Source: Verrucomicrobiota bacterium
Lineage (GTDB): Bacteria > Verrucomicrobiota > Verrucomicrobiia > Verrucomicrobiales > Akkermansiaceae
Assembly: GCA_040386755.1 (NCBI GenBank)
Contig: JAZKEY010000004.1
Span: 263,137 to 327,136, forward strand
Direction of reading: 5' to 3'
Length of the DNA: 64,000 nt
Both the position numbers and the translations under genes were made by a program. Below the pieces are notes generated by a model, which was not told the DNA's origin, ran no database searches, and worked only from the letters and a program-made list of their open reading frames with translations. Of the stretch, positions 21,501 through 60,957 are shown piece by piece (position 1 is the stretch's first letter; the number at the start of each line of letters is the position of its first letter).

Positions 21501-24216
21501 CATTTACTCGCTGGAAGGGACCAATGCGATCACCGGAGTCACCAGCCTGACTAAGAACAACACCGGCATTCTTTCCATCAGCAATCCGAACACCTACTCC
21601 GGCGGGACCATTCTCAACGGCGGCACGCTCAACATCAACAACAACTCCGCCATCGGAACCGGCACGCTCACCATCAACGGCGGCGAACTGGACAGCACCT
21701 TCGGCGGCATCGTCCTGGGAACCAACAACCCCCAAGTCTGGAATGCGGACTTCAACTTCGTCGGAACCGGCGCGCTCAACCTCGGTACCGGAGCGGTCAC
21801 TCTCAGTGCGAACCGCATTCTGGACATCAACGGCGACGCCCCCCTGACCGTCGGCGGGGTGATCGGCGGACCCGGCTTCAGTCTCACCAAAGAAGGTCCT
21901 CAGGCCCTGATCCTCGGCGGGGCGAATACCTACACCGGCGGCACCACCGTCAACGAAGGAATCCTCCAGCTCAACCAGACAACCGGTGCTGCGAACATCG
22001 GGACCATCAACGTCAACGGTGGCTCGCTGGTGTTCAATCCGCCCGGCAACAATTTCGGTTATGCCCCTGCGATCAACCTGACGGTTGACACCACCTTCAG
22101 CAAGATCGGCAACCCGCAGATCAACTACACCGGCACCCTCACCGGCACCGGAAATGATCTGGAGGTCAACACTTCCGCAGGCCGCTTCTACATGAACGCC
22201 ACCGTCAGCGGCATCGACCAGATCAATATCACCGGAGGAGCGATGGGCTTCGACCTCAACGTTGGAAATCGTGCGGGAGGCGCTCCGGTCAACGTCTCCG
22301 ACGGTGCCTCGCTCTGGATGGCCAACGGAACCAACACCGTGGCCAACAACATCACCCTCAACGGTGGAACCGGTCAGGGCGGTACGGGAGCGCTTTTCCA
22401 GGAAGGCAACTCCGTGCAAACCATCTCCGGCGCGATCACGCTTGCCGCCGGGAACAGCCTGATCGGCGGCAATTCCAACAACGGAATCACCAGCAGCGTC
22501 ACCATCAGCGGCGCGGTCGGAGGCCCGGGGTCCCTGACCAAGGCCGGAACCCACAAGTTGGTCCTTTCCGGAGCCAACACCTATCCCGGATCGACCACGG
22601 TCAATGCCGGCACCCTTGCCGCCGGCATCGCTTCCGTTCCGAATGTCAGCGGTGCGTTCGGAAACAATTCCGCAGTGGCACTTGCAGACGTCGCCACCGC
22701 CATTCTCGACATCACCGGCTTCAACACCCAGATCGGCTCGATCACCGGCGGCGGGGCCGTCGGCGGAAACGTAACCCTCGGCGCGGCCACCCTCACCACC
22801 GGCGCTGATGACAGCAGCCCGGCCGCCTACGCCGGAGCGATCTCCGGCACGGGAGCCCTCGTCAAGATCGGCAACGGAACCCAAACCCTTTCAGGGGCCA
22901 GCAGCTACACCGGGGATACCACCATCCATGCGGGTTTCCTGGCCGCCAACCGTACCAATAACAACCTCAACCCGGTCGTCAGTGCCCTTGGAAATCCCCA
23001 GGTCGCGCGCAACATCACCGTCAACTCCGGCGGCACGCTGGGCTTCATCCTAGGTGACACCCTTGGAGGAGCGACCAGTGTCGTGGTTTCCACCCTCGTC
23101 ATCAATGCCGGCGGCCTGGTCACCAACAACGCCGACAACTTCACCAACCTGGGCCCGGTGCTCATGAATGGCGGAGTCCTGACCACGGCCGGCGGAGCGG
23201 TCGGCGGTTACCAATCCTACTACTTCAGCGGTGATGTGAGTGTCGGCGGCTCGACTGCCTCCGCCATCACCGTCACAGCCGGAGGAAATGCCTTCAACGG
23301 ATTCCACTTGGGCACCAACACCACCTTCACCGTCGCCGATGCCACAGGCAGCGCCGCCAGTGATCTCGATGTCACCGCCCCGCTCATCAACCGGAACCAA
23401 TCTCTTGGTGGCAATGGCGGCCTTACCAAAGCAGGTTCAGGAACCATGACCTTGGGCGAAATCAACACCTACACCGGCAACACCGTGGTTTCCGCCGGCA
23501 CGCTGGTCCTGGACACCGCCGGACAGTTGAAGTTCGTGGTCACCACCAATGGGCTGAACAACTCTCTCTCAGGTGCCGGAGCCGCCACACTCAAGGGTGG
23601 CTTCAACATCGACCACTCCGGAGCTGACATTGCCAATGGCAACAGTTGGACACTCGTGGATGTCACCAGCAAGACCTATGACAGCCTCTCCTTCAACATC
23701 CCCGGCTTCACCCAGGCCGCCGATGTCTGGACCAAGGTCGAGGGCAACAACACCTGGCGCTTCCATGAAACCGGCGTGAACGCCGGCAAGCTCACGTTGG
23801 AAGTGGCCACCCCGAGTGGATACGCCACCTGGGCCTCCACCAACGCGCCTACCGGAACCGCCGACGACGACTTCGACAACGACGGAGTGGCCAACGGCGT
23901 CGAATATGTGCTCGGCGGTTTGGCCACCACCAACGACAATGGCAAGCTGCCTGGTCTTGCCTTGAATGGTGGCGACCTCGTGTTCACCTTCATGCGCGAT
24001 CAGAATTCCGAAACACCGGATACCACCGCGAAAATCGAAGTCGGCACCAGCCTCTCCGCCTGGCCCGCCAGCTACGCGATCCCTAACAACCCTGTCGCCG
24101 CCAACCCCGGCGTCACGGTGGTGGATAACGGAAACGGTACGGACTCCATCACGCTGAGAATCCCGCAAGCGCCGGATACGAAGAAATTCGCCCGCTTGGT
24201 GGTGACGATCCAGTAA
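18592..24216 (+). CDS. Large secreted beta-helix protein with autotransporter-associated beta-strand repeats (adhesin-like)
   Basis: Signal peptide; repeated LTKxGxGTLTLxGxNTYTGxTxVNxGxL units; no beta-barrel; C-terminal DFDNDGVANGVEY...KKFARLVVTIQ; likely start ATG 18592. Confidence 0.9.
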   Translation: MKPRFLSPSSTTTLTKSFHPAAAFFAGVLAFTATGPLEAASDTWDNGAADNNWQSVNNWVLNATFPGLNTNVYTSTEDATFSATGATGTVNLGNQINLRSLIFGVAAGNAASFTLGDANDVLNLTTAGGVTVNAGVTTAQNIGSAGTTINLSNASAASATFTNNSTNLLTVAGNVVANGAGTGATIALSPLLTVTGSGNTTISGTVSKVTHNALLKTGAGTLTLTNGSSFSGAGAIGYVPATAAGFPLVVREGTLLLNGGTHASTGEIVIGGVVANGGAGQNAKIQVDSGSMTVSSWLSVGRGNGVGGVSSDLALNNGATVTSANYSGGFNGGNAANLVKGSITLNGTSMMTVTGNDGNFNHGESTGSNLTLTLNNTATLVHNGGASGTKIGLSGRGILNNASVGSTVDVRNLIIGQAANGIGAVYNKGTLKTVNDGYFLGDGSGSSSYLRNDNALATVANDNAGNLAVGIGLNSNAVTDVISGSLSATRILLGAFNSNASNGQINVTGGTLSSGATGTSITDSAARQNKWGNINVTGAGVFANPTTINLSSSPFANNTGILSIASGGTVTADTIITNGALPNAYVNFDSGTLRASSGTSAALIDTNIDRVTVYGGGGTIDTNSFNKNIDRIIAAPTGNGVTSVAISATGTGYLGRPLVKITGDGTGATAMADFNLATGEVTGITVTSPGAGYTTATVTVTGGGGTAITATPTLSAPTAGGITKASAGTLTLSAANTYTGPTLVNGGKLSVTGSLASSSAVTVANGATLGGTGTVNGTTTVSTGGIVEGGVNATGKLNLSGLAFNGAASVKIGTLSNYAASTAIGAGALSTAGGAGAVVINIASLGAATAPSTYTLIDYTGGSIGGTGFSGFSLAALPSRALGSLVDTGSQINLSLTSLDFLKWTGNSGSSWDTTTSSWKLNSNNNATLYINSPGDSVVFDDSAVPNFTVDISTADVSPTSVTFNNTLTNIYSLEGTNAITGVTSLTKNNTGILSISNPNTYSGGTILNGGTLNINNNSAIGTGTLTINGGELDSTFGGIVLGTNNPQVWNADFNFVGTGALNLGTGAVTLSANRILDINGDAPLTVGGVIGGPGFSLTKEGPQALILGGANTYTGGTTVNEGILQLNQTTGAANIGTINVNGGSLVFNPPGNNFGYAPAINLTVDTTFSKIGNPQINYTGTLTGTGNDLEVNTSAGRFYMNATVSGIDQINITGGAMGFDLNVGNRAGGAPVNVSDGASLWMANGTNTVANNITLNGGTGQGGTGALFQEGNSVQTISGAITLAAGNSLIGGNSNNGITSSVTISGAVGGPGSLTKAGTHKLVLSGANTYPGSTTVNAGTLAAGIASVPNVSGAFGNNSAVALADVATAILDITGFNTQIGSITGGGAVGGNVTLGAATLTTGADDSSPAAYAGAISGTGALVKIGNGTQTLSGASSYTGDTTIHAGFLAANRTNNNLNPVVSALGNPQVARNITVNSGGTLGFILGDTLGGATSVVVSTLVINAGGLVTNNADNFTNLGPVLMNGGVLTTAGGAVGGYQSYYFSGDVSVGGSTASAITVTAGGNAFNGFHLGTNTTFTVADATGSAASDLDVTAPLINRNQSLGGNGGLTKAGSGTMTLGEINTYTGNTVVSAGTLVLDTAGQLKFVVTTNGLNNSLSGAGAATLKGGFNIDHSGADIANGNSWTLVDVTSKTYDSLSFNIPGFTQAADVWTKVEGNNTWRFHETGVNAGKLTLEVATPSGYATWASTNAPTGTADDDFDNDGVANGVEYVLGGLATTNDNGKLPGLALNGGDLVFTFMRDQNSETPDTTAKIEVGTSLSAWPASYAIPNNPVAANPGVTVVDNGNGTDSITLRIPQAPDTKKFARLVVTIQ

Positions 24217-24770: not shown

Positions 24771-24822
24771 CGGACAATGAACTAGCCGTTTCAAATCCAT
24801 CATGCAATGCTTCCCGCCATTC

Positions 24823-25905
24823 ATGAAAACTCCCCGGCTTGTATTCGTCGTCCTGATTTCAGCAATGGGTATTTCCATGGCCGATGAAGACCCGCCGATC
24901 AACCGCGCACAATTCATCGGCACGCACAATTCCTATCACATCGCACCCTCGCCGAAGGTTCGCCACTTGATCGAAACAGTCGCAAAGGGCGAGGGCGACG
25001 CCATCAACTGCACCCAGCGCCCCCTAACTGAGCAACTGGAGAAACTCTCCATCCGCCATTTCGAGCTCGATCTCTACGCCGATCCCAAAGGCGGGCTGTT
25101 CTCGAATCCGCTCGCAGCCACCCTCGTCGGAGAAATTAATCCGCATCCTGATCCGCTATGGAAGCAGCCGGGGCTAAAAATCCTGCATAGTCCTGATTTC
25201 GACTTCCGCACCACGGTTCCCACCTTTCGTAAAGCCCTTCAGGAACTCGCCGCCTGGTCCAAGGCACATCCGAAACATGAGCCGCTGATGATTCTGCTAG
25301 AGCTGAAACAGGATTCGTTTTCCCCGAAGACCCGACCGCTGCCGTTTGACGAAGCGCAGCTCAAGACCGTCGAAACGGAAATTCTCGCGGAACTCGCGAA
25401 GGAACAAATTCTAACACCGGATCAGGTGCGCGGCGATTTCCCCACCCTGCACGATGCCGTCACGAAACGCGGTTGGCCGAAACTTTCCGAAGCCGCCGGA
25501 AAATTCATCTTCTGCCTCGATAACGAAGGCGTGGTCCGCGACCGCTATCTCGCGCTTTCACCGGCAAAGAACCTAACTGGCCGATTGCTCTTCACCAGTG
25601 TCCCGCGTGATCACCCGGCGGCGGCGTGGATGAAGCGGAATGATCCGGTCGGCGGCTTCGATGAAATCCAGTCCCTCGTGAAAACCGGTTTCATGGTCCG
25701 CACCCGCGCCGATGGCAACCTCAAGGAAGTCCGCGCCAAGGATTACACCCGTTTCAAGAAAGCCGTGGCCAGCGGTGCGCAATGGATCAGCACCGATGCG
25801 CCCGAGGAAATTCCGGAGTTCCCCGGCTATCGCGTCGGCTGGGAAAACGGTCGAGTGTGGCAGCTAAGGAGCGTGGGACTGTGGCCCACGAAGCCGATGG
25901 AGTGA
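24823..25905 (+). CDS. Exported phosphoinositide-specific phospholipase C-like protein (PI-PLC X domain)
   Basis: Signal peptide; QFIGTHNSYH, IRHFELDL, GAQWISTD; likely start 24823. Confidence 0.8.
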   Translation: MKTPRLVFVVLISAMGISMADEDPPINRAQFIGTHNSYHIAPSPKVRHLIETVAKGEGDAINCTQRPLTEQLEKLSIRHFELDLYADPKGGLFSNPLAATLVGEINPHPDPLWKQPGLKILHSPDFDFRTTVPTFRKALQELAAWSKAHPKHEPLMILLELKQDSFSPKTRPLPFDEAQLKTVETEILAELAKEQILTPDQVRGDFPTLHDAVTKRGWPKLSEAAGKFIFCLDNEGVVRDRYLALSPAKNLTGRLLFTSVPRDHPAAAWMKRNDPVGGFDEIQSLVKTGFMVRTRADGNLKEVRAKDYTRFKKAVASGAQWISTDAPEEIPEFPGYRVGWENGRVWQLRSVGLWPTKPME

Positions 25906-25975
25906 GAAAGCGCTGCGCGAAGCTCATTTCTTTCGCTTCCCATCGACCCGGTGGGCCGAAGTCCCACCCTTACCC

Positions 25976-43712: not shown

Positions 43713-43766
43713 TCACCCCACTTTCAACCACCCCAAGCCATTGACGACAAGAGAGTTACGATCCTG

Positions 43767-44132
43767 TTATTTCTTCACCCAAACGTTCAAAAACCATGAT
43801 ACGAGCAAGCAGGCGCAAATGGCCAAAATAAACATCGTGATGATGAATAATGTCTTCGCGGTTTCCCGCCGATCCAGGTGCTGGCGATCCACCATCGAGT
43901 CGGCAATGATGTGACCCCTGCTCCGGCGCGGAGCATGTTGTTTCCCTTGGACGGCGGAAGATCGCCGCACCGCCGGCTCCACCATGACGACGGCAGCCAT
44001 TTGCACAGTGTCTGTGTGAGCGGGGGCGACGATCACCGTACCGCAGGAAGGACAGGGGCCGCTCACGCCGGCCAGGCGATGGCTCACCGACAGCTTCCTG
44101 CCGCACCTCGGGCAACAAAAAACGAGTTCCAC
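43767..44132 (-). CDS. Small zinc-ribbon protein with C-terminal TM helix
   Basis: CPRCG...CPSCG then LFIITMFILAICACLLVSWFL; probable GTG start 44132 (ORF track 44204). Confidence 0.65.
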   Translation of the reverse strand: MELVFCCPRCGRKLSVSHRLAGVSGPCPSCGTVIVAPAHTDTVQMAAVVMVEPAVRRSSAVQGKQHAPRRSRGHIIADSMVDRQHLDRRETAKTLFIITMFILAICACLLVSWFLNVWVKK

Positions 44133-44213
44133 GCTTTTTTCGGGATCCGAGATTGATGACTCCAGCACGTTGGAATTGAAAACCCGTGGAATCGCGGGAC
44201 TCAAGCCCGAAGA

Positions 44214-45290: not shown

Positions 45291-45368
45291 CAACTGGCAA
45301 TCCAGAGAGTGAAAAATCCAACCAGCCGGGTGTTTCGGGAGATTTCTTGAGGGAGCCTCATCGGCTTC

Positions 45369-46958
45369 TCACTTGTTTTTCTTGAGGGTAATCTTCACCC
45401 GATAGATATCGGAAAGCGTGCCCGGAGGCTGGATATACCAATTGGGATTGGTGAAGACTTGCTGCTCGTCCGGAACCATGATCTTGCTCCTCACTTGGAT
45501 CTGCGTGGTGACGATGTTGCGCTCGACGTTTGTCACGCGGTCCACCGTCCAATTGTCATCTTCGGTGAATTTCTGCCAGGTTTTCCCTTGGTCGGTGCTT
45601 CGCTGCAGGAGGTAGGCTACCTTGGGATTCGTTGCGGTCTGGACATTCACGTTGAAACCGTAGTAAGAGCCGATCGGGGTAGGACCACCCACGATGTTCA
45701 CGGCTTGGTAGGGTGCGGGTGTCGGAGGTTCGGGGGTACTGGCGAAATCGTTGCCGTTGCTGCCCAGGATCCATTCGTTCAAGTTGTTGAATCCGTCTTT
45801 GTCCGGATCGGACAGAATGTCCTTACCCCGCGCCTTCGCGAAATTGATGTCCGTGTATTCGGTGTAGCGGTTCACCACCATCACGGGAATCTGGAACTTG
45901 CGCGAGGAGAAGTCATAGGTGACCCCGCCGGTTTGGAAGTCCCGTTGCAATTGGAGTTCGACCATCGCGCGCATTCCCGACGGGAAAATCGGCGGCACCG
46001 TGAACGAAGTTTGATACGGGCTTGTCAGCAAGACCCGGGAATCGCCTCCATTATCGAACGCGGGGAACATCGCCTCCCGCTCGACCAAGGCGGAGCCTTG
46101 CGGATTCTTGGGGTCGCGCAACGCTCTCAAGGAGAAGTAGAGGTTGTCCACGGCCGCAAAGACCGTATCAGGATTCATCCCCTTCCACTTGATGACGTTC
46201 GGCCTGAAGTAACTCAATTCGATGAATCCTTTGGGACTCCATTTGTTATTATTGATGCTCGTGAATACAACTCCTTGCTCGGTGTTGTTCACATTGGCCA
46301 ATCCCTCGACCATCGGATAAATCGTCGCGGAAATCGGGGCTGGCCGGAAGACATAATCCTCGCTCGGGGAGTTATCCACCGCAGGAAAAACATACTGGTA
46401 GACACCGGGGACAATCTCGCTGGTGAACTTTGTCCGCTGGGACTTGGCATACTCCCGTTCCAGAAAATAGTGGGTGATTTTATACTCCTGAATACTGGTT
46501 GTGTTCAGGTTATAATATACCGTCGCGCTATCATCCTTAAATCCGCCCGATGGTCTCGGCAGGCCCGATGCGGGTGCCGCCGACAGACTGACGAACTGGG
46601 GCTTGAACGGCTCGATGGCAATGGCAGGATAGAGTGACGTGACTACGAGGTAAGGTCTCTGGATCGTTGCGCCATTGATGCTCCCCGAACTCAAAAATCC
46701 GGCGGTCCCCGGTGAGCAAATACCGATGTAGTACCCAGGTGGGAAATAGTTGGGGTCATTGCAGCCGAAAATGCTGTCAACGTGGCCATCCACAAGGTCC
46801 ATGTCGAAGGACCCTCCCTTGAAATTGATGCTTTTTTTGTCCTGACGGTAAGAGATTTTGCTACTGAGACTCAGCGAGATCTGCGCGCCCAAAGGCATGG
46901 CCGCCGATACAAAGAGTGCGGAAATGAGCGGCAAATAGTGGGTTTTAATCCGAATCAT
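45369..46958 (-). CDS. Secreted protein of unknown function
   Basis: Signal peptide (LPLISALFVSAAMPLGA); C-terminal DPDKDGFNNLNEWILG motif. Confidence 0.75.
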   Translation of the reverse strand: MIRIKTHYLPLISALFVSAAMPLGAQISLSLSSKISYRQDKKSINFKGGSFDMDLVDGHVDSIFGCNDPNYFPPGYYIGICSPGTAGFLSSGSINGATIQRPYLVVTSLYPAIAIEPFKPQFVSLSAAPASGLPRPSGGFKDDSATVYYNLNTTSIQEYKITHYFLEREYAKSQRTKFTSEIVPGVYQYVFPAVDNSPSEDYVFRPAPISATIYPMVEGLANVNNTEQGVVFTSINNNKWSPKGFIELSYFRPNVIKWKGMNPDTVFAAVDNLYFSLRALRDPKNPQGSALVEREAMFPAFDNGGDSRVLLTSPYQTSFTVPPIFPSGMRAMVELQLQRDFQTGGVTYDFSSRKFQIPVMVVNRYTEYTDINFAKARGKDILSDPDKDGFNNLNEWILGSNGNDFASTPEPPTPAPYQAVNIVGGPTPIGSYYGFNVNVQTATNPKVAYLLQRSTDQGKTWQKFTEDDNWTVDRVTNVERNIVTTQIQVRSKIMVPDEQQVFTNPNWYIQPPGTLSDIYRVKITLKKNK

Positions 46959-47049
46959 GTGCGGAAGATGGTGTGGTGAATTGGAGCTGACAAGAGGAAA
47001 TTCGACGTTCTTGCGACAATACTTGAATTACATTGTAATCACGAAGCGC

Positions 47050-48273: not shown

Positions 48274-48429
48274 GATGGAAAGAGGCACAAGGGGTGAGAG
48301 AATCCGACGCGGCTTGCAAGAAATTCCCCGTGACGCCTGCGGATACTTTCGCGGAATTTTCCGACAACTTTTGGGTAGCATGGCGTTTTCATCCCTGAAA
48401 GGCTAACGCCAGACGAAAAAACACTTCTC

Positions 48430-48870
48430 ATGAAAATCACCACCCCTTCCTCCAGCTTCCGCCGCCGCGCCGGTTTCACCCTGCTCGAAATGGTCATCGT
48501 TCTCGGCATCATCGCGATGATCCTCGGCGGCGCGATCTTCTCGATGAAGAAAATCGGCAACTCCGCCAAACTCAGTCAAACCGAATCCGACTTCAAGAGC
48601 TTCGACAGTGCCCTCGCGATGTACAAATTGAACGGCGGCACTTTCCCCGTCACTCAGCAAGGCCTGAAGGCGCTGGTGGAAAAGCCTTCCTCCACCCCGG
48701 TTCCACGCCGCTGGGTGCAAATCATGCCCAAAGTGCCATTGGACCCATGGGGCAGTCCTTATGGCTATCGCTTCCCAGGCAAGAAGAATGCCAGCGATTT
48801 TGAAATCTTCAGCAACGGCCCGGACGGACAGGAAAACACCGCAGATGATCTTAGCAGCCAGGACGAATAA
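48430..48870 (+). CDS. gspG: Type II secretion major pseudopilin
   Basis: GFTLLEMVIVL prepilin motif; ALAMYKL, PVTQQGLKAL, DPWGSPY. Confidence 0.92.
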   Translation: MKITTPSSSFRRRAGFTLLEMVIVLGIIAMILGGAIFSMKKIGNSAKLSQTESDFKSFDSALAMYKLNGGTFPVTQQGLKALVEKPSSTPVPRRWVQIMPKVPLDPWGSPYGYRFPGKKNASDFEIFSNGPDGQENTADDLSSQDE

Positions 48871-49405
48871 GCCGCGCCGGGGCTTCACCCTTATCGAGAT
48901 CGTCATGGTGCTCGCCATCGCGGGTGTCGTCATGGGCGGCGCGGTGGGACTGATGTTGTTCTCATCCGACGAGCGTGCCTTGCGCAACGCTTCTGGCGAA
49001 ATCGAATTGATGGCCAAAAAAGCCCGCACTATCTCGATCCTTCACCAGACGCCCTATGCCCTTGAGTTCCGCGAAGGCAGCGTCAATCTGCTCCCGCTCG
49101 CCCAAGCCGGGCGGGACGAGAAACAGCTCTCGCGGCAGCGGAATCAAATCGAGGAACCCGAGTCCGGCGGCACCAACGAAAACCGCCGGTTCCAACTCCA
49201 AGCCGGCATGGGCATTGCGATCCGGCATTGGAACTCCGACAAATGGCTCACCGCCGCGAAAAACACCGTCCATGTCTGGCGCTTCGATCCGGATGGCCTT
49301 TGCGAACCCATTTCCGTCCGGCTCACGCTCAACAAAAGCTGGGCTGTCGATTCCTTCCATCCGCTTACCGCCTCCATCACGGACAGCGAACTCGAAGCCA
49401 AATGA
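48845..49405 (+). CDS. Minor pseudopilin, GspH-like
   Basis: RRGFTLIEIVMVL; likely start ATG 48845. Confidence 0.8.
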   Translation: MILAARTNKPRRGFTLIEIVMVLAIAGVVMGGAVGLMLFSSDERALRNASGEIELMAKKARTISILHQTPYALEFREGSVNLLPLAQAGRDEKQLSRQRNQIEEPESGGTNENRRFQLQAGMGIAIRHWNSDKWLTAAKNTVHVWRFDPDGLCEPISVRLTLNKSWAVDSFHPLTASITDSELEAK

Positions 49406-49815
49406 TCCCTTCCCGCCAACGCATCAGACGCGGATTCCTTCTCCTTGAGATGGTTCTCGCGCTGGGCGTGTTCGGCATCGCCGCGACCGGATTCGCCGTC
49501 GCGCTGAGGCGCATGGCGCAGGCTGCACAACTCGCCCAAAGCGAACTCCGCATCACCCGCATCCTCGACAGCGCCTTGGACGAAACCCTTTCCATCCCGA
49601 CGATGGAGGAAGGGGAAACCAGCACCACCGTCGGCGAGACCGACATCGAGCTCAACACCACCATCTCCCTCATCGAAGACCTCCAAACCGAAGAGGGCCA
49701 ACAACTTGCCGAGATGTTTCGGATCAAGATCGTCGCCAAATGGTATGAAAACGGCGCCTGGCAGGAGCGCTCCGTCGACACCTGGCGCTACGGACGCATG
49801 TATCAACCGCTGTGA
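49402..49815 (+). CDS. Minor pseudopilin, GspI-like
   Basis: RRGFLLLEMVLAL; ATGA overlap at 49402. Confidence 0.78.
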   Translation: MIPSRQRIRRGFLLLEMVLALGVFGIAATGFAVALRRMAQAAQLAQSELRITRILDSALDETLSIPTMEEGETSTTVGETDIELNTTISLIEDLQTEEGQQLAEMFRIKIVAKWYENGAWQERSVDTWRYGRMYQPL

Positions 49816-50591
49816 CCTCCTCACCTGTCAGAACCCGCGCTTCCGGATTCACGCTGCTTGAGCTCGTGCTCTCCATGGCGATCCTTGCGATCATCGTCGG
49901 TATGGTTTTCGGTACCGCGCGCACTTCGCTGGCTTTGGGAAATACCATCGTAAAAACCCAGAACGAGGAAATGCTCAACCAAGCGTTTCTCGACCTTCTC
50001 AACCAGCGATTCACCGCCTTGCCGGGCAACACCCGATTCGACCTCAAGGTCTCGGATTCCGGATCCCACTACCTCTCGGATCTCACGCTCCAGAACGTCC
50101 CCCTCAGCTTCACTTGGGGCGGGCAGGCGCGCATCGCCAAGGCCGTCCAGCTCAGCACCGTGAAAAAGCGCAGCGGCTACCTCGACGTCGTCCTGCGCTA
50201 TTACGAAAACGAAATTCTCCCGGATTCCACCAATCCCACCGCCTCCGCCACCATCGACGAGAAGCCGTTTGCCGAAATCACCCTGCTCACCGACGTCGCC
50301 TACTTTGAATGGCGGGTGCTCGAGAGCCGCTCCTTGGAGTGGCAATACGATTGGGAATTGCAAGGACGCCTGCCGCTTCAAATCGAACTCACCATGGCCG
50401 TCGGAGCCAAGGGCGAGGAAAGCCGCCACATTTTCTGGATTCCGCCGAAACAAAACGTCGAAGTCCACATCCGTCAGATCACGCAAAACCGCGGCGGCGA
50501 TGCCGGTGGCGGTGGCGGTGGCGGTGGCGGTGGCGGTGGCGGTGGCGGTGGCGGCGGCGGGCCACAGATCAATATCCCTCCTCAGAAATAG
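49812..50591 (+). CDS. Minor pseudopilin, GspJ-like, with poly-Gly tail
   Basis: SGFTLLELVLSM; GTGA overlap; ends in a Gly run. Confidence 0.8.
   Translation: MTSSPVRTRASGFTLLELVLSMAILAIIVGMVFGTARTSLALGNTIVKTQNEEMLNQAFLDLLNQRFTALPGNTRFDLKVSDSGSHYLSDLTLQNVPLSFTWGGQARIAKAVQLSTVKKRSGYLDVVLRYYENEILPDSTNPTASATIDEKPFAEITLLTDVAYFEWRVLESRSLEWQYDWELQGRLPLQIELTMAVGAKGEESRHIFWIPPKQNVEVHIRQITQNRGGDAGGGGGGGGGGGGGGGGGGGPQINIPPQK
50505..50561 (+). repeat. (GGTGGC)8 microsatellite encoding part of a 19-Gly run
   Basis: Eight perfect hexamers at 50505-50552, then GGC GGC GGG. Confidence 0.95.
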
Positions 50592-50593
50592 AA

Positions 50594-51532
50594 ATGATCG
50601 TCCACCCCTTCCATTCCCGAAAACCGACCGGCGCGGCCCTCATGGCGGTGCTTTGGCTGATCGCGATCCTGGGCATGGCATGCATGGCCGCGCTGCGGGT
50701 CATCACCTTCGACATGGAAATCGCCTCGGCCAAGGTCCACGGCTCGCGAGCGCGGCAGATCGCGGAAATGGGCATTGCGCTCGGGTCGAACTACATGGTC
50801 AAAAAGACCGATCCCCTGCTCCACCGTGTGGACCCGGAAACCGGGGAAAGTTTCGACGTCAAAATCATTTCCGAGGGTGGCCGTTTCAACATCAACTGGA
50901 TTCTCATCCAGGACGACAAACCCCTGCTCCGCGAAATTTTCGTCAATTGGGGACTCGAACTCGAAGACGCCCAGCAAGTCGCCGATGCGCTCGGTGACTG
51001 GATCGATGCCGATGATGACGTGGCCCTCAATGGCGCGGAAAAGGAATTTTACGAAAAGGAAGGCCGCATCAACCAACCGTTCAACCGTCCGTTTTACGAC
51101 CTCAGCGAGATGAGTCTCGTCCGCGGGATGGATCGGGTGGAGGCGGTGAAGCCGGATTGGCGTGACTGGTTCACCATCTGGAGCCAAGGCCCGCTCGACG
51201 TGAATGCGGCGTCCGCCGAGTTGATCGCCGCCGCTGCGGAAATCGAAGTGGCCCAAGCCGACGTCATCCCCGAAACTGTCCGCGGCGCGGATGGCGAGCT
51301 TGACACCGTGGATGATGCACCATTTCAAAGTGCCGCCGCCGCGCTTGATCTTTTGGGCATCGGCGAGAATGGTCCGGCCGACATCATCAAACGTTTCGGC
51401 GGGCCTGATCCAATCACCCGCGTCGAAAGCATTGGCAACGCTGAAGGCGCCAAGCACAAGATCTCCATCATTCTCCGCAACCGCACCGGAAGTCCGGCCC
51501 TCCTCGAACGCACTGAAGAAACCATCCCGTGA
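50594..51532 (+). CDS. gspK: Minor pseudopilin GspK
   Basis: GAALMAVLW (no +5 Glu), SEGGRFNIN, DWIDADD, NRPFYDLSEM, LDVNAAS; start 50594. Confidence 0.85.
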   Translation: MIVHPFHSRKPTGAALMAVLWLIAILGMACMAALRVITFDMEIASAKVHGSRARQIAEMGIALGSNYMVKKTDPLLHRVDPETGESFDVKIISEGGRFNINWILIQDDKPLLREIFVNWGLELEDAQQVADALGDWIDADDDVALNGAEKEFYEKEGRINQPFNRPFYDLSEMSLVRGMDRVEAVKPDWRDWFTIWSQGPLDVNAASAELIAAAAEIEVAQADVIPETVRGADGELDTVDDAPFQSAAAALDLLGIGENGPADIIKRFGGPDPITRVESIGNAEGAKHKISIILRNRTGSPALLERTEETIP

Positions 51533-52773
51533 GCAAATCCACCGACAACGTTCTTCTCGTCCCCGGCGAATCCGGCTGGGAAATATGGACCGGCCCCTCC
51601 GCCGCCGAGTTCACCCTTCACAACGCCAGCGCTGTCGAGCAAGCCAGCGAGCTTACCGACCTTCCCGCCGGTGACGTGCTGCTGCTTTTCCCAGTGAAAT
51701 CCGTGACCGCCGTGCCGATGCGCGTCAGCAGCGACGATGAGGCGCTGTTTTCCGATCTTGCCGCGCTTCATGCCGAGCGCCTCGGCCTCCGCCCGGATCC
51801 GATGGCCGGCCAACTGACCGACGTTTTCGTGATTGCCCGCGAGGCGGAGAACAGCGCGTTGGTTTCCGTGCTGCTGCGCGCTCCGGTCGATAGCGAAATG
51901 CCGCCGCGCGGTCCCAAGGGATTCGATATTTCCCCGCGAGCCTTCCCGTTGGGTGGCGATGCACTGGCGGTCTGGAAAGAGTTCGGCCGCTGGGTTTTCA
52001 GCCTCTATCATCAAGGAAATCTCGTTTATTGCCAAGCCACCTCCGGCACGTCCTCCAGCCCGGATGAAGCGTTTGCCCGGGAAATCCGCTTGGCGTTGAT
52101 CCAGCTTTCGATGCAAGGCCTTGAGATCGAGCCTTCGCAGATCTCGCTGTGGACAAATTCTCCCGGAGTCAGTCCGGCCGCATTGAATGCCGCTTTCAGG
52201 GCTCCGGTCGAGGTTTTGCCCCGGCCCGCGCCGGTGCTTCCGGACCCGCTCAGCAAGCTGCTGCCGGCCGACGTCCGCGCCGCCCGCCGCGCCGCTCAGC
52301 AGAAGCGGAACCTCATGCTCGGCGTCGCCGCCGTGGCGCTGCTCTACCTTGGCGTCATCGGTTGGTTCGGCTACGGCTTGTGGAAAGACAGCGCGGAAAC
52401 CGCCCAACTCATCAAGGATGCCAAAGCCGCCGCTCCCGAAGGCGAGGCCTACACCCGCCACATCGCGAAATGGGACGAATTGGCCAACGCCATCCAGCTC
52501 AGCAACTCGCCGGTCGATATTCTCAAACGCATCGCCGACTGCATCCCGCCCGCCAGCGGCCTGCGCCTGCGCACTGCGGAAGTCAGTGCCAGTGAAATCA
52601 AGCTCATCGGCGAGGCGGGTGCGCTTCAGGCGGTGAATAATTTCAGCAAAAGCCTGAGCACGAGCAACGGCCTGACCAACTTCGAATGGCAAACGCCCGA
52701 GCCAAACCAATCAACCCGTGGTTGGGAGTTCGTTTACAGCGCGGAAGTGCCGGCCGCCGCCACCCAGCCCTGA
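51529..52773 (+). CDS. GspL/PilM-N-like inner-membrane platform protein
   Basis: Operon position; large cytoplasmic N-domain, single TM (LMLGVAAVALLYLGVIGWFG), PilN-like C-domain. Confidence 0.7.
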   Translation: MSKSTDNVLLVPGESGWEIWTGPSAAEFTLHNASAVEQASELTDLPAGDVLLLFPVKSVTAVPMRVSSDDEALFSDLAALHAERLGLRPDPMAGQLTDVFVIAREAENSALVSVLLRAPVDSEMPPRGPKGFDISPRAFPLGGDALAVWKEFGRWVFSLYHQGNLVYCQATSGTSSSPDEAFAREIRLALIQLSMQGLEIEPSQISLWTNSPGVSPAALNAAFRAPVEVLPRPAPVLPDPLSKLLPADVRAARRAAQQKRNLMLGVAAVALLYLGVIGWFGYGLWKDSAETAQLIKDAKAAAPEGEAYTRHIAKWDELANAIQLSNSPVDILKRIADCIPPASGLRLRTAEVSASEIKLIGEAGALQAVNNFSKSLSTSNGLTNFEWQTPEPNQSTRGWEFVYSAEVPAAATQP

Positions 52774-52860
52774 TTTTCCACATCACCGACAAAACCCGGC
52801 CGCTACGGCATTAACCGGGCAGCAACCTTCTCCATCCGCTCTTTTTCTTCTCCCTTTTCC

Positions 52861-53391
52861 ATGTCCGACCGCGAAAAAAAACTTCTGATCTTCTTCGCCA
52901 TCGCCGGCTTCGCGATCCTCAATTTTCTCGGCTTCAATCTCGCACAGGCCAAGCGCATCAAGGTGAATGCGGAGAAAGCCGCCGCCCGCCAGCAGCTCGC
53001 CAATGCCGATATGTTCCGAGAAAGCAGCCAAGGGGTCACCGAAGACATGGAATGGCTTGCCGAGCACGAGCCCGAGCCAGCCGCCAATCAGGACGTGCAA
53101 ACCAAGCTCCAGCAGGTCGTCGAGCGCGAAGCCAATTCTGCCGGTCTCACCATCAAACCTGGCCAGAAGCCCCTGCCCACCGACACCACGGGCACCCACT
53201 ATCACCGCGCCAGGATCCAGATCTCGGTTACTGGCTCGGAAGACGCGCTTTACCGTTGGTTCGACAAACTCAACATCCCTGAACAATTCCGCATGGCCTC
53301 GCAGATCCGCCTTTCGCCCAATACCCAGGACGACACCAAGATCGACTGCACCGCCACCATCGAACAATGGTTCGTACCCGCCACCTCCTGA
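52861..53391 (+). CDS. GspM/PilO-like protein
   Basis: MSDREKKLLIFF N-terminus with TM; operon position. Confidence 0.7.
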   Translation: MSDREKKLLIFFAIAGFAILNFLGFNLAQAKRIKVNAEKAAARQQLANADMFRESSQGVTEDMEWLAEHEPEPAANQDVQTKLQQVVEREANSAGLTIKPGQKPLPTDTTGTHYHRARIQISVTGSEDALYRWFDKLNIPEQFRMASQIRLSPNTQDDTKIDCTATIEQWFVPATS

Positions 53392-53403
53392 CCCACACGC
53401 CCT

Positions 53404-54033
53404 ATGAAAACTCCGGTCATTACCCTGCTTTTTCTGGCCCTCGCCGGCATCGTCTCTGCGGACGTCCCCAAAAAGGGATCTCTGAATAGCTACAGCAAAC
53501 TTTGGAACGATTCTCCCTTTACGACGAAGCCGGTTGTCGGGCCTGGTGAATCCGCCGTCAATCCGCTCGACGACTACGCGCTCATCGGCGTCTCACCCAT
53601 CGGCGCCGGGAAATACCGGGTCACCCTGATCAACAAGAAGAAACCGGACGACCGCATCATGGTTTATTCCGACAGCACGACGTCCGATTTCAAAATCCTC
53701 GGCGTGACCAAAAAGGCCGGCGATCCGCTGGGCACGGTGGTTAGCATGTCCTCCGGAAAGCAAACCGGCACGGTGCGTTTCGACGAGAAACTGCTCACCC
53801 TCGCTCCTCCGCCTGCTGCGGCCAAACCAGCCACGCAACCCGGCCAACCCAACCCTCAGGTGCAGCCAGGCCAACCGGGCCAGCCACCGATCCAACCGGG
53901 TGACCCGCGTCAGCGCCAACCCCAGCCCCGCCCGCGTGTGGTGCCGCCACCCACTCCACAAGCTGGCCAGCCCCAGGCCCAACCTGTGCAGCAGCAACAA
54001 AACAATCAGCGCCCGGAACGCCGCCGCAATTAA
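53404..54033 (+). CDS. Exported Pro/Gln-rich protein in the GspC position
   Basis: Signal peptide, compact domain (YALIGVSPIG...VTL), PGQP-rich tail; directly upstream of the secretin. Confidence 0.6.
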   Translation: MKTPVITLLFLALAGIVSADVPKKGSLNSYSKLWNDSPFTTKPVVGPGESAVNPLDDYALIGVSPIGAGKYRVTLINKKKPDDRIMVYSDSTTSDFKILGVTKKAGDPLGTVVSMSSGKQTGTVRFDEKLLTLAPPPAAAKPATQPGQPNPQVQPGQPGQPPIQPGDPRQRQPQPRPRVVPPPTPQAGQPQAQPVQQQQNNQRPERRRN

Positions 54034-54063
54034 TTCTCCAATCTGAAATTCCAATCTTTTTCC

Positions 54064-56553
54064 ATGTCCTTGCCACGCTCTTTCGCCTTCCTAGCTCTCG
54101 GTCTCGCCACCGCCACCGCCCAGCCACCGGCGGAAGCCCCGGCAATTCCCGCTCCGCCACCGGGTGTTCCCATTCCCGGTGCCATTCCGCCCCGTCCTGC
54201 TGGAGCGCCCGGCGTGAACCAGCCAGCGGTGATTCCCGGAGCCACTCTTGGTGATACGAAAATCGTCGAGGACATCAACGAGCCCAAACTCACCGGCAAC
54301 GCACTCGCCGGACTTTACCGGCGTTACACCGGCCGCCGCGTCATCGTTTCCGCCGCCGCCGCCGCCGCCGAGTTCTCCTTCGTCCAGGAAGCCACTACCC
54401 AAGACCCGCTGACTTTCTCCAAGGCCGCCGAGCTGCTGAAGAAAGCCGCCATGATCGAAAACTTCGTTTTCGTGCCCGATGGCCAAGACAAGAATCTCGA
54501 TTTCCTCACTCTCCCGACCGGCGGCATCCGCCCGACGCAGCGTGGGGTCGAGGTTTATACGGATAAAGGCCCCGTCTACAGCGAAAACGACTCCCTGCCT
54601 GAGGGAGATGCCGTCATTTCCTACGTGATGCAGCTCAACTACATCAAACCGGTCGATGCGCAGAACGTCTTCACCCAGATTATCGGCCAGTTTGGTTCCT
54701 ACGGCTCCATCGCCCCGGTCGCCAACGCCTCCTCGCTCATCATCACGGAAAATACCTCGCTGATCCGCAAGCTCATCGACCTCAAAAAGGAAATCGACAA
54801 GCCCGGCTCCGTCCAGGGCACCCGTTTCATCAAGGTCCAGTACGCCGACGTCACCGAGATCGCCGAGACACTGACGACACTTCTCACCGCCCAACAATCC
54901 ACCCAGAAAACCGCCGGCATCCAGCGTGCCGATACCGCACCGGCACCGGGTGGTGCCCCAGCAGGCGCCGGCCAGCCCGGCGGCGCGAGCAGCGGTGAGG
55001 AAACTCCCGTCCAAATCGTTCCTGACCCGCGCACGAACCGCATCTTCGCCATGGGCCGCCCGGTCGATTTGATTTTCGTCGAAGGACTCGTCCGCGAGTT
55101 CGATGTGGAAACCAGCGAGAAGAACTTCCTTCGCCGGAAACTCCGTTTCCTCACCGTTTCGGACTTCCTGCCGATCGCCGGCGACGCCCTCACTCGCGCC
55201 TTCAGCGGCAGTGGTGACAGTGGCGGAAGCGGAGGCTCAAGCACACAAGGTGGCGCTGCTTCGGGCGGCGGTGCCCAAGCAGGTGGACGCTCCCAATCCA
55301 CGGGGCGCACCTCGGGCAGTAGCAGCAGCAGCTCGGGAGCCAATTTCGGCGGATCCTCCTCCAGCAGCGGTGGCATCGGCGGCAGTGGCGGATCGAGCGG
55401 CGGCGGTGCCGGAAATGCACTCAGCGATCCTGAAGTCAGCTCGGCTCCCGAGTCTGTTTTGGTCGGACGCACGCTTCTGGTTGCGGACAACATCACCAAC
55501 TCCATCGTCGTCCAAGGCCCGCCATCCGGTCTGGAAATCATCGAGAAGCTGCTCGACCAGATCGACGTGAAGCCGGACCAGGTTATGATTTCCACGGTCA
55601 TCGGCCAGCTCAGCCTCGGCCAATCGAATGAATTCGGCGTCAACTACCTGTTCAAGAACGAGGATTTCCGCGCGGGAGGCGGTGGAAGCAGCAATCCCAT
55701 CCTTCCCATCCCCGACACCGGCGGCCGATTCCCGCGTTTCGATCCCTCGACCCTCAGCGGCAGCGGCCTTCGCGCACTGGGAACCGTCGGTGATCTCAGC
55801 ATTTACCTCAAGGCCCTCCAGTCGAAGACCGACTTCACAGTGCTCTCCAGACCGAGTATTTTCACCTCAAACAACCAAAAGGGCACCATCTCCAGTGGTG
55901 AAAAAATCGCCATCCCCACCAGCAACAACAACTACGCCGGCGGTGGATCCAGCACCAACATCGAGTATCAGGATGTCGTGCTGAAACTCGAAGTGATCCC
56001 GCTGGTGAACTCGGACAACGAGATCACCATGAAGATCGCCCTCCTCAACGACGAACAAAACGGCACCCAGACGATCGCCGGTGGCGGAAGTGACGGCGGA
56101 GATCTCACGGTTCCCAAGATTTCTACCCGGGAAATCCTCACCACCGCCACGGTTCCTAACGGACAAACCATCGTGCTCGGTGGCTTGATCGTCGGCCGGA
56201 AAGGCACGGACGTCAGCGGGATTCCGATCCTCAGCGACATTCCCTACCTCGGCAAACTTTTCTCGACCACCACTAATACGGACAACCGCAGCGAGCTGAT
56301 GGTCTTCATCCAGCCCTCCGTGGTGAAAAACGACCGCTCGCTCGATGCCGTGCAGATCGACATGGATTCCCGCTACAAGGTTGCCGCCAAGGCCCACCAA
56401 ATGGCCGACGGCCCCGGCGTCCTGCCGGATGTGAATGCCATCCAGCCCGTGTCCGACAAGGAAAGCAGCAAGTCGCAACCAGCTCCGGTGCAATACCAAA
56501 CCGCTCCGGCCAGTACCAAAAAACCGTCGATGCGCCCGGCCCACCGCCGTTGA
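54064..56553 (+). CDS. gspD: Type II secretion secretin
   Basis: N-domain repeats (DPRTNRIF, DNITNSIVV), IDVKPDQVMI, VLSRPSI, LKLEVIP, GQTIVLGGL, GIPILSDIPYLGKLF, SELMVFIQP. Confidence 0.93.
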   Translation: MSLPRSFAFLALGLATATAQPPAEAPAIPAPPPGVPIPGAIPPRPAGAPGVNQPAVIPGATLGDTKIVEDINEPKLTGNALAGLYRRYTGRRVIVSAAAAAAEFSFVQEATTQDPLTFSKAAELLKKAAMIENFVFVPDGQDKNLDFLTLPTGGIRPTQRGVEVYTDKGPVYSENDSLPEGDAVISYVMQLNYIKPVDAQNVFTQIIGQFGSYGSIAPVANASSLIITENTSLIRKLIDLKKEIDKPGSVQGTRFIKVQYADVTEIAETLTTLLTAQQSTQKTAGIQRADTAPAPGGAPAGAGQPGGASSGEETPVQIVPDPRTNRIFAMGRPVDLIFVEGLVREFDVETSEKNFLRRKLRFLTVSDFLPIAGDALTRAFSGSGDSGGSGGSSTQGGAASGGGAQAGGRSQSTGRTSGSSSSSSGANFGGSSSSSGGIGGSGGSSGGGAGNALSDPEVSSAPESVLVGRTLLVADNITNSIVVQGPPSGLEIIEKLLDQIDVKPDQVMISTVIGQLSLGQSNEFGVNYLFKNEDFRAGGGGSSNPILPIPDTGGRFPRFDPSTLSGSGLRALGTVGDLSIYLKALQSKTDFTVLSRPSIFTSNNQKGTISSGEKIAIPTSNNNYAGGGSSTNIEYQDVVLKLEVIPLVNSDNEITMKIALLNDEQNGTQTIAGGGSDGGDLTVPKISTREILTTATVPNGQTIVLGGLIVGRKGTDVSGIPILSDIPYLGKLFSTTTNTDNRSELMVFIQPSVVKNDRSLDAVQIDMDSRYKVAAKAHQMADGPGVLPDVNAIQPVSDKESSKSQPAPVQYQTAPASTKKPSMRPAHRR

Positions 56554-58551: not shown

Positions 58552-60957
58552 ATGATCCACCCGTCATTAACGCATCTGTCGTCGCTCGCTTTAATTTTCA
58601 TGCCTTTAGGCGTGGTTTCGGCCGCCTCCATCGATTCCGCAGCTTCTGGAAATTGGAATGCCACCGGTACCTGGTCCGGCGGGGCCGTCCCGCAAACCGG
58701 CGTGGGCGATACGGCCAACATTCTATCCAGTCACACCGTCATCTACACCAATGGGGCCCCTTTTGCCGGCTTGGATGGATCCAACGATTTCGGCGTGGGC
58801 AACGGCAATAGCATCAATATCAACGGCGGCATCCTCAGCCAGGCGGAAGGCGGCTGGTGGGTGCGCATCGGCCACAAGGGCGTTGGCACTTTCAACATCA
58901 ACGACGGACGTTTCCATGTCACCGATGCCACCGGCGGAGGCACCGACCTTCAGGTGGGCGTGGAGACCAATGGCAACGGCACGATCAATGTCGGCGACAA
59001 CAGCGGGGACGCCGGCAGCGCCGTGCTCAACCTGCGTGACCGCGTCGCCTTGTCCGCCAACGGGGGTGCTTTCACCATGAATCTCGGCCGCAGCACCGGG
59101 ACCGTCGGGGTGGTCACCATCAACTCCGATGGCGTTCTCGAAAGCGATCAGAAGACGTGGAGCGGCACCACCGCGGTTCAAAATCCCCACATCCGGATCG
59201 GGCAGGCATCGTCCGACGTGCAGAGCGTCCTCAACGTGAAAGCAGGCGGGCAATTCAACGCGCGGGGCAATGTCGAGGTCGCTGCCGAAGGTGGTGCCAA
59301 GGGACGGCTTCATCTGGACGGCTGGCTAGCCCGCATGGACATGTCCGATGGCGAGTTTACTGTCGGCTTTACCGGAACCGGCGCAATGACCGTGGAAAAC
59401 GAAGGGGTCTTTTCCCGTACGAACACAACCGAAGCCAGATCCGATCTCTATGTCGGTCGGAATGGCAGCGGTAACGGCACCATCACGATCGCCTCTTTCG
59501 GCGAATTCCGCCGCCAGTCTGGAGGAAACGTCGGTGACTTGCGCATTGGGTTCGACGGCACTGGCGTGCTGAACGTCGAAGCCGACGGACTCTACCATAA
59601 TGAATCCGGCAACTGGGACTGGCTCGGCCAGAATTCCACCGGCAACGGAACCGTCAACGTCAACGGCGGCATTTTTGAAATCACCAGCGGTTCCAACCTG
59701 ATCATCGGCCTCAACGGGACCGGCACCTTCCACCACAACAGCGGCTCCACCAACGTCAGTGGCATCCGGGCCGGTGTGAACAGCGGCACCGGACTCATCA
59801 CCATCGATGACGGCACGTTCAATGTGCGCGGAGGTTTGTATCTTGGCGGCGACTCCACCACCAGCTTGGGCAACGGCTCCGCCACCATGACTCAAACCGG
59901 CGGAGAACTCCTTGTCGGCGGCTCCTTGGTCGTCGGGATCGCCGCCAATCACACCGGAATCTATAGTCTCACTGGCGGCACCGCCACGCACACCACCTCC
60001 GATATCAGCGTTGGAGAATCAGGCACCGGGACATTAACCATCGCAGCCGAAGCTTCTCTAACCGACACATCGATCACCAGCGGACAGTTTTTTGTCGGTC
60101 GCAATGAAGGATCCGGTGGCACGCTGATCGTCAACGGCACCCTCACCAAAAGCGTTAGTGCCAATGCCATCCGAGTGGGCAACGGCAACGCCGACGGCGT
60201 GGACAACACCAACGCCACCGGCCTGCTAGGCGGCACGGGTTCCATCTCCTCCGACGGCGGAGTCCGCATTGGCAGCCGGGGCACGCTCACCGCTGGTCTT
60301 GCCACCACCGTCGGCGTCCTCGGCATTACCGGCAATCTCGCCTTCTCCTCCGGCGGCAAGCTCAGTGTGGATGTCGACGGAGCCACCGCCGACCGGGTGA
60401 ATATCGTCGGCAGCCTGGATCTCGCCGCAGACGCGTTCACGTTTGATGTTCTCGCCACACCCACCGCGATGAATTATATCATCGCCAAATACACCGGCAG
60501 CCTGACCGGCACGCTCTCCGGCACGACCCTCCCCTCCGGCTATGGGCTTAAACACGACACCGCCGCCAAAGAAATCCACCTCACGAAACTGGGCTTCCTC
60601 GCCTTCATGGATCAATTCTCCGGCCTGAGCGAGGCCGACAAGCTCGCCGGTGCTGACCCGGATCACGACGGCATCAGCAACCTCATCGAGTATGCTCTTG
60701 CGGGATTGAATCCGACGACCCCCGATGCGTCGCCAGGGACTTTGATCGACGGTGTCGTCAGCTTCAACAAACGCGATCTCGCGGTAACCAATGGAGACGT
60801 CGCGTATGGCATCGAGGAGTCGTCTACCTTGGGAGTGGCACCAGACCCATGGGCTCCCGTCACGACCTATATTCTCAATAACGCCACGACCATTTCCAGC
60901 CTTGTTCCCGCGGAATCGTCGAAGCATTTTGCGCGCCTCGCAGTTGTGGGCAATTGA
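58552..60957 (+). CDS. Secreted beta-helix (passenger-like) protein
   Basis: Signal peptide; Gly/Asn/Thr-rich xVGxxGxGxxxxxGG repeats; C-terminal DPDHDGISNLIEYAL...KHFARLAVVGN. Confidence 0.85.
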   Translation: MIHPSLTHLSSLALIFMPLGVVSAASIDSAASGNWNATGTWSGGAVPQTGVGDTANILSSHTVIYTNGAPFAGLDGSNDFGVGNGNSININGGILSQAEGGWWVRIGHKGVGTFNINDGRFHVTDATGGGTDLQVGVETNGNGTINVGDNSGDAGSAVLNLRDRVALSANGGAFTMNLGRSTGTVGVVTINSDGVLESDQKTWSGTTAVQNPHIRIGQASSDVQSVLNVKAGGQFNARGNVEVAAEGGAKGRLHLDGWLARMDMSDGEFTVGFTGTGAMTVENEGVFSRTNTTEARSDLYVGRNGSGNGTITIASFGEFRRQSGGNVGDLRIGFDGTGVLNVEADGLYHNESGNWDWLGQNSTGNGTVNVNGGIFEITSGSNLIIGLNGTGTFHHNSGSTNVSGIRAGVNSGTGLITIDDGTFNVRGGLYLGGDSTTSLGNGSATMTQTGGELLVGGSLVVGIAANHTGIYSLTGGTATHTTSDISVGESGTGTLTIAAEASLTDTSITSGQFFVGRNEGSGGTLIVNGTLTKSVSANAIRVGNGNADGVDNTNATGLLGGTGSISSDGGVRIGSRGTLTAGLATTVGVLGITGNLAFSSGGKLSVDVDGATADRVNIVGSLDLAADAFTFDVLATPTAMNYIIAKYTGSLTGTLSGTTLPSGYGLKHDTAAKEIHLTKLGFLAFMDQFSGLSEADKLAGADPDHDGISNLIEYALAGLNPTTPDASPGTLIDGVVSFNKRDLAVTNGDVAYGIEESSTLGVAPDPWAPVTTYILNNATTISSLVPAESSKHFARLAVVGN

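Follow-up and report, generated by a model that had tools for sequence, protein, structure and literature searches.

The GlyGly-CTERM/rhombosortase and MYXO-CTERM/myxosortase systems act on C-terminal tags of proteins that are exported by Sec and depend on the type II secretion system (T2SS) to be localised at the surface (bioRxiv 10.1101/2023.06.07.544157), and Akkermansia muciniphila possesses both PEP-CTERM/exosortase and autotransporter systems (PMC4960237). The locus analyzed here is a 64,000-nt stretch (the window) from a Verrucomicrobiota bacterium of the Akkermansiaceae (GenBank assembly GCA_040386755.1, contig JAZKEY010000004.1, positions 263,137 to 327,136 of the forward strand), in which three proteins, termed A, B and C, end in similar C-terminal tails. 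By sequence comparison these tails are one homologous domain of ~120-160 residues in three subtypes, and a genome scan with a C-type pattern points to an unnamed family that is widespread in, and apparently specific to, Verrucomicrobiota. Targeting and anchoring domains at the C-terminus are a kind already known; the present family is large, and its confidently modelled fold has no significant match in the PDB or in BFVD, a collection of predicted viral structures. The domain addresses the question of how the many autotransporter-like beta-helix proteins of Verrucomicrobiota that lack a barrel reach the surface.

Homology and anatomy of the C-terminal domain

In a six-frame translation of the window the strict motif D.D.DG..N..E[YWF] was matched three times, once in each of the open reading frames (ORFs) of A, B and C, at 87-133 residues before the stop. 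The number expected from residue frequencies was 3e-5, and matches were found in none of 300 shuffles. Many kinds of protein contain DxDxDG motifs, and the shared layout might on that account be no more than a common calcium-binding motif that recurs by chance; this explanation is counted as refuted by the difference between expectation and observation, by homology over ~85-120 residues beyond the motif and by a family of more than 1,300 members.

The A and C tails were aligned by BLASTP over the full tail length (E=6e-8) and the C and B tails over the first half (E=3e-5), while the pairwise alignment of A with B was confined to the motif. An A/C-type profile from which all B-type sequences had been removed still found 102 of the 120 proteins of the B family, with a best E of 1.5e-9, from profile position 2 to ~100. 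Comparison of the B-family tail alignment with the A/C alignment by hhalign gave a probability of 94.8% (E=4.9e-8) over ~85 columns, which take in the aromatic helix and calcium loop as well as the first strands and the hairpin S-T-D-x-G...W. Tail A was matched by the family hidden Markov model (HMM) at residues 1793-1922 of its stop-to-stop frame with E=7e-31, a value that is partly circular, as this tail is a row of the HMM alignment. The claim of the original prediction that the three C-termini share one layout is thereby upheld, and the peptides quoted in its support are all present; the range assigned to tail B (45369-45870) is not made up of whole codons and is out of frame as given, the ORF itself holding the quoted sequences. 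The description of the carriers as three unrelated proteins holds in that no significant pairwise similarity among A, B and C was found outside the tails, but fails in that A (PATR/TIGR02601) and C (TIGR04393) are of the same general class, both being beta-helix repeat proteins.

The domain begins with a short aromatic helix, G-[FY]-x-x-[WF], followed by a single DxDxDG-type loop (EF-hand- or TSP3-like) and a helix, ..N-L-[IV]-E-Y-A. Its second part is a compact beta-sandwich with an Asp-box-like hairpin (S-T-D-x-G...W), and it ends in a last strand, K-x-F-A-R-L-K-V, and 5-8 more residues, usually with Pro. An AlphaFold2 model of tail C built on a 96-sequence alignment (pLDDT 94.6, pTM 0.84) is a self-contained globular unit with a beta-sandwich core, having helices at residues 2-7, 30-35 and 62-67, the loop at 22-29 and strands at 49-52, 55-60, 70-77, 100-104 and 113-120. 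In tail B the Asp-box is perfect (STDQGKTW) and an extra segment is inserted before the last strand; after the insertion the B-type last strand still closes on Y-R-V-K-I, parallel to F-A-R-L-K-V.

Across the 96 sequences D22, D24, D26, G27, N30 and E33 are invariant or at least 90% conserved. These residues, which we take to be positions 1, 3, 5, 6, 9 and 12 of the canonical DxDxDG/EF-hand-type loop, fit its oxygen-ligand pattern (acidic or amide residues at 1, 3, 5, 9 and 12; Gly at 6). Their placement on canonical loop positions makes a structural Ca2+ site the natural inference, and the domain is accordingly predicted from its sequence to bind Ca2+ at the single loop.

Features of the window that bear on the domain are collected in the table. 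Sec-type N-termini are present in A (MKPRF...AAAFFAGVLAFTATGPLEA/AS), B (MIRIKTHYLPLISALFVSAAMPLGA/Q) and C (MIHPSLTHLSSLALIFMPLGVVSA/A), and no autotransporter barrel, PEP-CTERM or two-partner secretion (TPS) domain was detected in any of the three by Pfam and NCBIfam scans, in agreement with the original prediction of Sec-like signals without barrel or PEP-CTERM. In the public copy of protein A (P0112) the start is the ATG at 18592, 13 codons later, giving 1874 aa. Protein B belongs to a full-length orthologue family conserved in Luteolibacter and Akkermansiaceae, to which all its named homologues belong (L. yonseiensis orthologue, 54% identical); the source organism of the window is itself Luteolibacter-like. 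The AlphaFold model of protein B has a pLDDT of 93.3, with low confidence only at residues 1-23, and its closest folds are ClfB and cytokine-receptor FN3 domains.

Table. Positions in the window of the three carrier proteins, their C-terminal domains and calcium-loop motifs, and the T2SS operon.
Feature	Position	Strand	Description
Protein A	18553..24216	+	1887 aa from GTG start; Sec-type signal, at least 7 PATR repeats, no barrel
A C-terminal domain	23818..24213	+	A-type subfamily, ..VANGVEY..; motif to end ~104 aa; terminus ..PQAPDTKKFARLVVTIQ
A DxDxDG-type calcium-loop motif	23869..23907	+	DFDNDGVANGVEY; pattern match
Protein B	45369..46958	-	529 aa; signal peptide and Ig/FN3-like beta-sandwich chain
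B C-terminal domain	45372..45869	-	Divergent B-type, ..FNNLNEW..; terminus ..DIYRVKITLKKNK
B calcium-loop motif	45771..45809	-	DPDKDGFNNLNEW; pattern match
Protein C	58552..60957	+	801 aa; signal peptide, TIGR04393 (T5SS/PEP-CTERM-associated) repeats; no barrel, no PEP-CTERM
C C-terminal domain	60592..60954	+	C-type, commonest subfamily, ..ISNLIEY..; motif to end ~85 aa; terminus ..KHFARLAVVGN
C calcium-loop motif	60655..60693	+	DPDHDGISNLIEY; pattern match
T2SS operon	48430..56553	+	gspG-H-I-J-K-L(like)-M, unknown 209-aa gene, gspD; context, candidate partner

Family size, terminal position and cargo

A count of HMM matches was among the checks proposed in the original prediction. Of 1.84 billion cluster representatives searched exhaustively with the HMM, 11,571 matched at E<=1e-3, of which 1,336 reached E<=1e-10 and 31 reached E<=1e-30. 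Because the weaker matches may span the calcium-loop part only, ~1,300 is a conservative family size. A word-indexed search with a seven-tail profile returned 102 proteins, which fall into three subtypes corresponding to A, B and C; in nearly all of them the motif lies 74-110 residues before the C-terminus and the chain closes with ..K-x-F-A-R-L-K-V-T-x-x-P. This search returned only proteins of <=290 aa, and architecture statistics were therefore drawn from the exhaustive search.

The position of the domain, also proposed as a check, proved to be strictly C-terminal with few exceptions. Among the best 150 matches of the exhaustive search 142 were newly returned proteins, and in 140 of these best-scoring representatives a full-length domain ends <=8 residues from the C-terminus, the two others being P0121 and P0133; in genomic loci, 95 of the 96 full-length domain matches with a visible stop codon end <=8 residues before the stop. 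The chain ends 5-8 residues past a near-invariant Arg in 223 of 227 tails, and 142 of the 227 have a terminal Pro.

The taxonomic range was determined by searching the genomes of 185,579 species, one for each, for the pattern DG[IL]SNL[IV]EY, using a four-sequence C-type alignment since the seven-tail alignment was too diverse; the result is thus skewed to close relatives. The scan yielded 147 confirmed relatives. Of the best 80, which were retained, 79 bear the label Verrucomicrobiota and the other is an unclassified 'bacterium'; the restriction holds for C-type matches, the pattern being C-type specific. Most of these 80 loci come from Luteolibacter, Akkermansiaceae, Verrucomicrobiaceae or Haloferula, and a few come from Opitutales, Chthoniobacterales and Lacunisphaera. 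Genomes carry several copies of the domain, with up to six loci from a single metagenome-assembled genome, and adjacent carrier genes are common among the best 80 loci. Two or three domain genes, often of different subtypes, stand side by side in ten loci (L005, L010, L027, L033, L037, L040, L044, L045, L056 and L080), which suggests local paralogue expansion. Phage proteins with the domain, a possible pointer to an envelope ligand, were looked for in IMG/VR and not found.

In a Pfam scan of 71 representatives, PATR repeats were found in 53, and the others have LTD, Big_3_5, Big_5, chitobiase C-terminal, malectin or LamG domains, or none that is recognised; the same scan gave no match to the autotransporter barrel (PF03797) or to PEP-CTERM. 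Source annotations of the carriers read 'hypothetical', 'autotransporter-associated beta strand protein' or similar. A hydrophobic, signal-like N-terminus is present in 86 of 109 long representatives, and the remainder start inside repeats and resemble truncated metagenome ORFs. The presence of the domain on proteins with signal peptides counts in favour of the original prediction.

With PATR beta-helices in 75% of carriers, the domain might be a C-terminal folding cap or autochaperone that starts or ends a long beta-helix and has no partner, as autotransporter passengers need a C-terminal autochaperone. This is improbable, given that the domain is also carried by proteins without a beta-helix (the Ig-like chain of B; LTD, Big, malectin and LamG proteins) and that it is modelled as a self-contained globular unit.

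Proposed role and relation to the T2SS locus

The domain is modular on unrelated passengers, lies with few exceptions at the free C-terminus with a fixed short tail, occurs in many copies within one phylum and stands in the slot of a barrel or PEP-CTERM; together these features point to a localisation module and not to a catalytic or substrate-binding one. The repeats of protein C were named by NCBIfam for their association with T5SS (type V secretion system) barrels or PEP-CTERM, and the domain thus occupies the place that sorting or anchor modules are known to take. We infer, with confidence that is evenly poised, that the domain is a shared localisation handle for export recognition, surface retention or both. 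Cargo proteins would cross the inner membrane via Sec, and the domain would take up a Ca2+-stabilised fold, either within the periplasm or extracellularly. The folded domain, with its free C-terminus, would then serve as a common recognition handle that fixes the final location of the cargo, either by transfer to an outer-membrane export route, by retention on the surface via a shared envelope component, or by both. In the Verrucomicrobial lineage the domain would take the place of the autotransporter barrel or PEP-CTERM on the same kinds of repeat proteins.

Several observations weigh against a localisation handle. Three proteins (P0104, P0105 and P0162, counted within the 140 above) carry two tandem copies each at the C-terminus and in another (P0121) all of the five tandem copies are internal, arrangements that are atypical for a secretion signal. 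In P0133 (4,499 aa, Beta_helix/NosD) the calcium loop, about a third of the domain, is the only part present; it stands eight times between beta-helix units, and its use alone as a repeated linker indicates that the loop part is a general building block. A strict terminal position is also typical of binding, non-sorting modules such as dockerins, and the position statistics come from top-ranked matches, skewed to close relatives, with ~10,000 weaker matches outside the count. Apart from antisense artefacts, neighbour-gene clustering at the 80 carrier loci retrieved only sulfatases, at 13 loci, and no conserved partner gene. The tandem and internal copies fit an anchoring or binding role slightly better than a pure secretion signal, and the strict terminal rule leans towards a signal over an anchor.

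The tandem and five-fold copies would also be expected, for avidity, of a ligand-binding or adhesive end module of the carbohydrate-binding module (CBM) or lectin type, which would bind an external substrate with the aid of calcium and have no role in the export or attachment of its own protein. Glycan-binding modules commonly show the features of the domain (small beta-sandwich, calcium-type loop, Asp-box hairpin), and the weak, non-significant Foldseek neighbours of the domain in the PDB include CBM21 and amylase/pullulanase accessory domains. Such modules usually occupy varied positions, whereas 98-99% of the copies counted here lie <=8 residues from the C-terminus with a fixed 5-8-residue tail; the carriers are mainly adhesin-like repeat proteins and not enzymes, and no CBM family was matched. 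A binding module of this kind is rather unlikely.

If the localisation handle acts in export, it could be the signal of a Verrucomicrobiota-specific outer-membrane route, either a T2SS that, in contrast to all those studied, reads a modular C-terminal tag, or an undescribed translocon; we hold this narrower reading to be doubtful. The T2SS operon of the window encodes pseudopilins G-K, an L-like protein, M and the secretin D, and is without gspE and gspF. The 209-aa gene at 53404-54033, between gspM and gspD, could not be annotated; its product has a signal or transmembrane segment and a Pro/Gln-rich tail, and the gene is kept in the operons of relatives. Protein B is encoded two genes from the gsp operon and divergently transcribed, and protein C ~2 kb downstream of gspD. 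A block of gspD..gspG, saccharopine dehydrogenase, B, RNase D, gyrB and gyrA (window 38445-56553) is kept in five relatives (L081-L085), whose B orthologues are about 45-54% identical. After gyrA, Wadjet genes (JetA, B, C or D) are found in L081, L083 and L084, and a GDSL lipase gene occupies that place in the window.

In its most specific form the export reading makes the domain a recognition tag for the T2SS of the window, with GspC/GspD or the pseudopilus tip binding the folded domain and the cargo being pushed through the secretin. We know of no T2SS substrate class that shares a linear or modular signal, nor of any defining sequence feature of such substrates, which counts against a tag. 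The complete gspG-M and gspD operon, the placement of B beside it in the window and the five relatives, and the proximity of C are in keeping with the proposal, as are the Sec signals that A, B and C share with T2SS substrates, which are folded periplasmic proteins; T2SS-dependent C-terminal tags have precedent in GlyGly-CTERM and MYXO-CTERM (bioRxiv 10.1101/2023.06.07.544157). The conserved block also holds RNase D, gyrB and gyrA, however, so that the adjacency of B and gsp may be plain inherited gene order; the synteny is compatible with a functional link and equally with inherited core-gene order. The remaining carriers are scattered, with gsp neighbours undetected at the 80 loci, and a T2SS tag is accordingly judged unlikely.

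As a conserved, strictly terminal and confidently folded domain in more than 1,000 protein clusters, the localisation handle proposed here gives a concrete hold on the question of surface export. It could be used as bait for a partner and, as an HMM, to predict the exported and surface proteome of a phylum abundant in soil, freshwater and gut. As a T2SS tag it would be that system's first modular secretion signal, as an anchor it would define a new surface-display system, and as a Verrucomicrobiota-specific export signal it would account for the export of many giant barrel-less PATR proteins. The tail family merits a domain-database entry under either reading, signal or anchor.

Other genes of the window were noted in passing. 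Directly downstream of A (24802-27667) lie a Ca2+-dependent PI-PLC-like phospholipase gene (+) and a neutral/alkaline ceramidase gene (-), possibly a pair of lipid-degrading exoenzymes. Four consecutive genes at 9305-16066 (-) encode paralogous single-pass proteins of 573, 520, 668 and 492 aa with alike N-terminal anchors, C-terminal W...P... motifs and no Pfam matches. A 1017-aa signal-peptide protein at 4827-7880 (+) has a C-terminal cytochrome c domain as its sole recognisable part, and a 723-aa HtrA-like protein at 61727-63898 (-), with two trypsin-like domains and several PDZ domains, adjoins maf.

Comparison with known C-terminal modules

The isolated tails gave no Pfam or NCBIfam model match even at E<=10, apart from sub-threshold traces on B (BNR/Asp-box on STDQGKTW, and the NCBIfam Amuc_1099 family at E=0.008 on the calcium motif only). 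A profile search of PDB sequences with the tails returned only spurious ATP-synthase gamma matches (E~0.3). Foldseek comparison of the tail C model with the PDB gave nothing significant, the best match being a cytokine-receptor FN3 domain (E=0.035, TM-score 0.37), and solved type IX secretion system (T9SS) C-terminal domains (CTDs) and dockerins were absent among the 50 PDB matches listed; against BFVD no significant neighbour was found. No description of the domain was found in the literature searched. The outcome that the original prediction had named as refuting it, a known dockerin- or TSP3-like domain, was not observed, there being no match to dockerin, TSP3 or T9SS-CTD models. Each of its proposed checks that was run came out in its favour, and the export role that it proposes for the domain is plausible and partly supported.

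That the domain belongs to a known class of C-terminal signal (T9SS CTD, type I secretion system (T1SS)/RTX, autotransporter, PEP-CTERM or TPS) is very improbable. The likeness is superficial, consisting of a C-terminal beta-sandwich for the T9SS and of calcium and a C-terminal position for the T1SS, and no HMM of any of these classes was matched. T1SS/RTX substrates have GGxGxD repeats and no N-terminal signal, whereas A, B and C have Sec-type N-termini and no RTX match. No TPS domain (PF05860) of two-partner secretion TpsA proteins (T5bSS) was matched, and the 12-strand barrel (PF03797) of classical autotransporters (T5aSS) is absent from A, B, C and 71 relatives, the PATR repeats of A notwithstanding. 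The domain has the same position on the same repeat-protein classes (PATR/TIGR04393) as the autotransporter barrel and the PEP-CTERM tag, also in Verrucomicrobia, but PEP-CTERM (TIGR02595/PF07589) was not matched and there is no PEP motif with transmembrane helix and basic tail, the tails ending instead in an amphipathic strand and 5-8 residues. The GlyGly-CTERM and MYXO-CTERM tags are short and tripartite; they include a transmembrane helix, are cut by intramembrane proteases and receive a lipid modification, whereas the Verrucomicrobial domain is soluble and folded and has neither a transmembrane segment nor Cys.

Like the type I dockerin, the domain is a calcium-loop module, usually C-terminal, on diverse exoproteins, and can be duplicated; the dockerin attaches such proteins to a common partner, the cohesin. 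The dockerin (PF00404) consists of two EF-hand-like loop-helix units (~70 aa) without a beta-sandwich, whereas the Verrucomicrobial domain is one loop and a sandwich, and no dockerin was matched in Pfam or in the PDB profile search at E<=10. The lead-in of the domain, D-x-D-x-D-G-x-x-[ND]-x-x-E with ..G..P after it, has the ligand spacing of TSP3 repeats (PF02412/PF18884), whose calcium motif D-x-D-x-D-G-x-x-D-x-x-[DE] it resembles at the motif level only, with Asn at position 9 in all three tails; there was no Pfam match to TSP3 at E<=10, and the single loop copy is fused to a conserved ~85-residue beta-sandwich that is absent from TSP3 repeats.

From the T9SS CTD (Por_Secre_tail, type A/B; PF18962/TIGR04183), to which there was no HMM match and no significant structural match, the Verrucomicrobial domain differs in having an extra N-terminal helix, a calcium loop and rare tandem or internal copies. 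The T9SS system is characterised by cleavage, attachment to A-LPS and cognate machinery, whereas the domain described here is known from sequence and model. Shared with the T9SS CTD are a folded beta-sandwich of ~80-120 residues that forms the extreme C-terminus of numerous otherwise unrelated proteins exported by Sec, a high copy number in each genome and a range confined to a single phylum, Bacteroidota in the one case and Verrucomicrobiota in the other.

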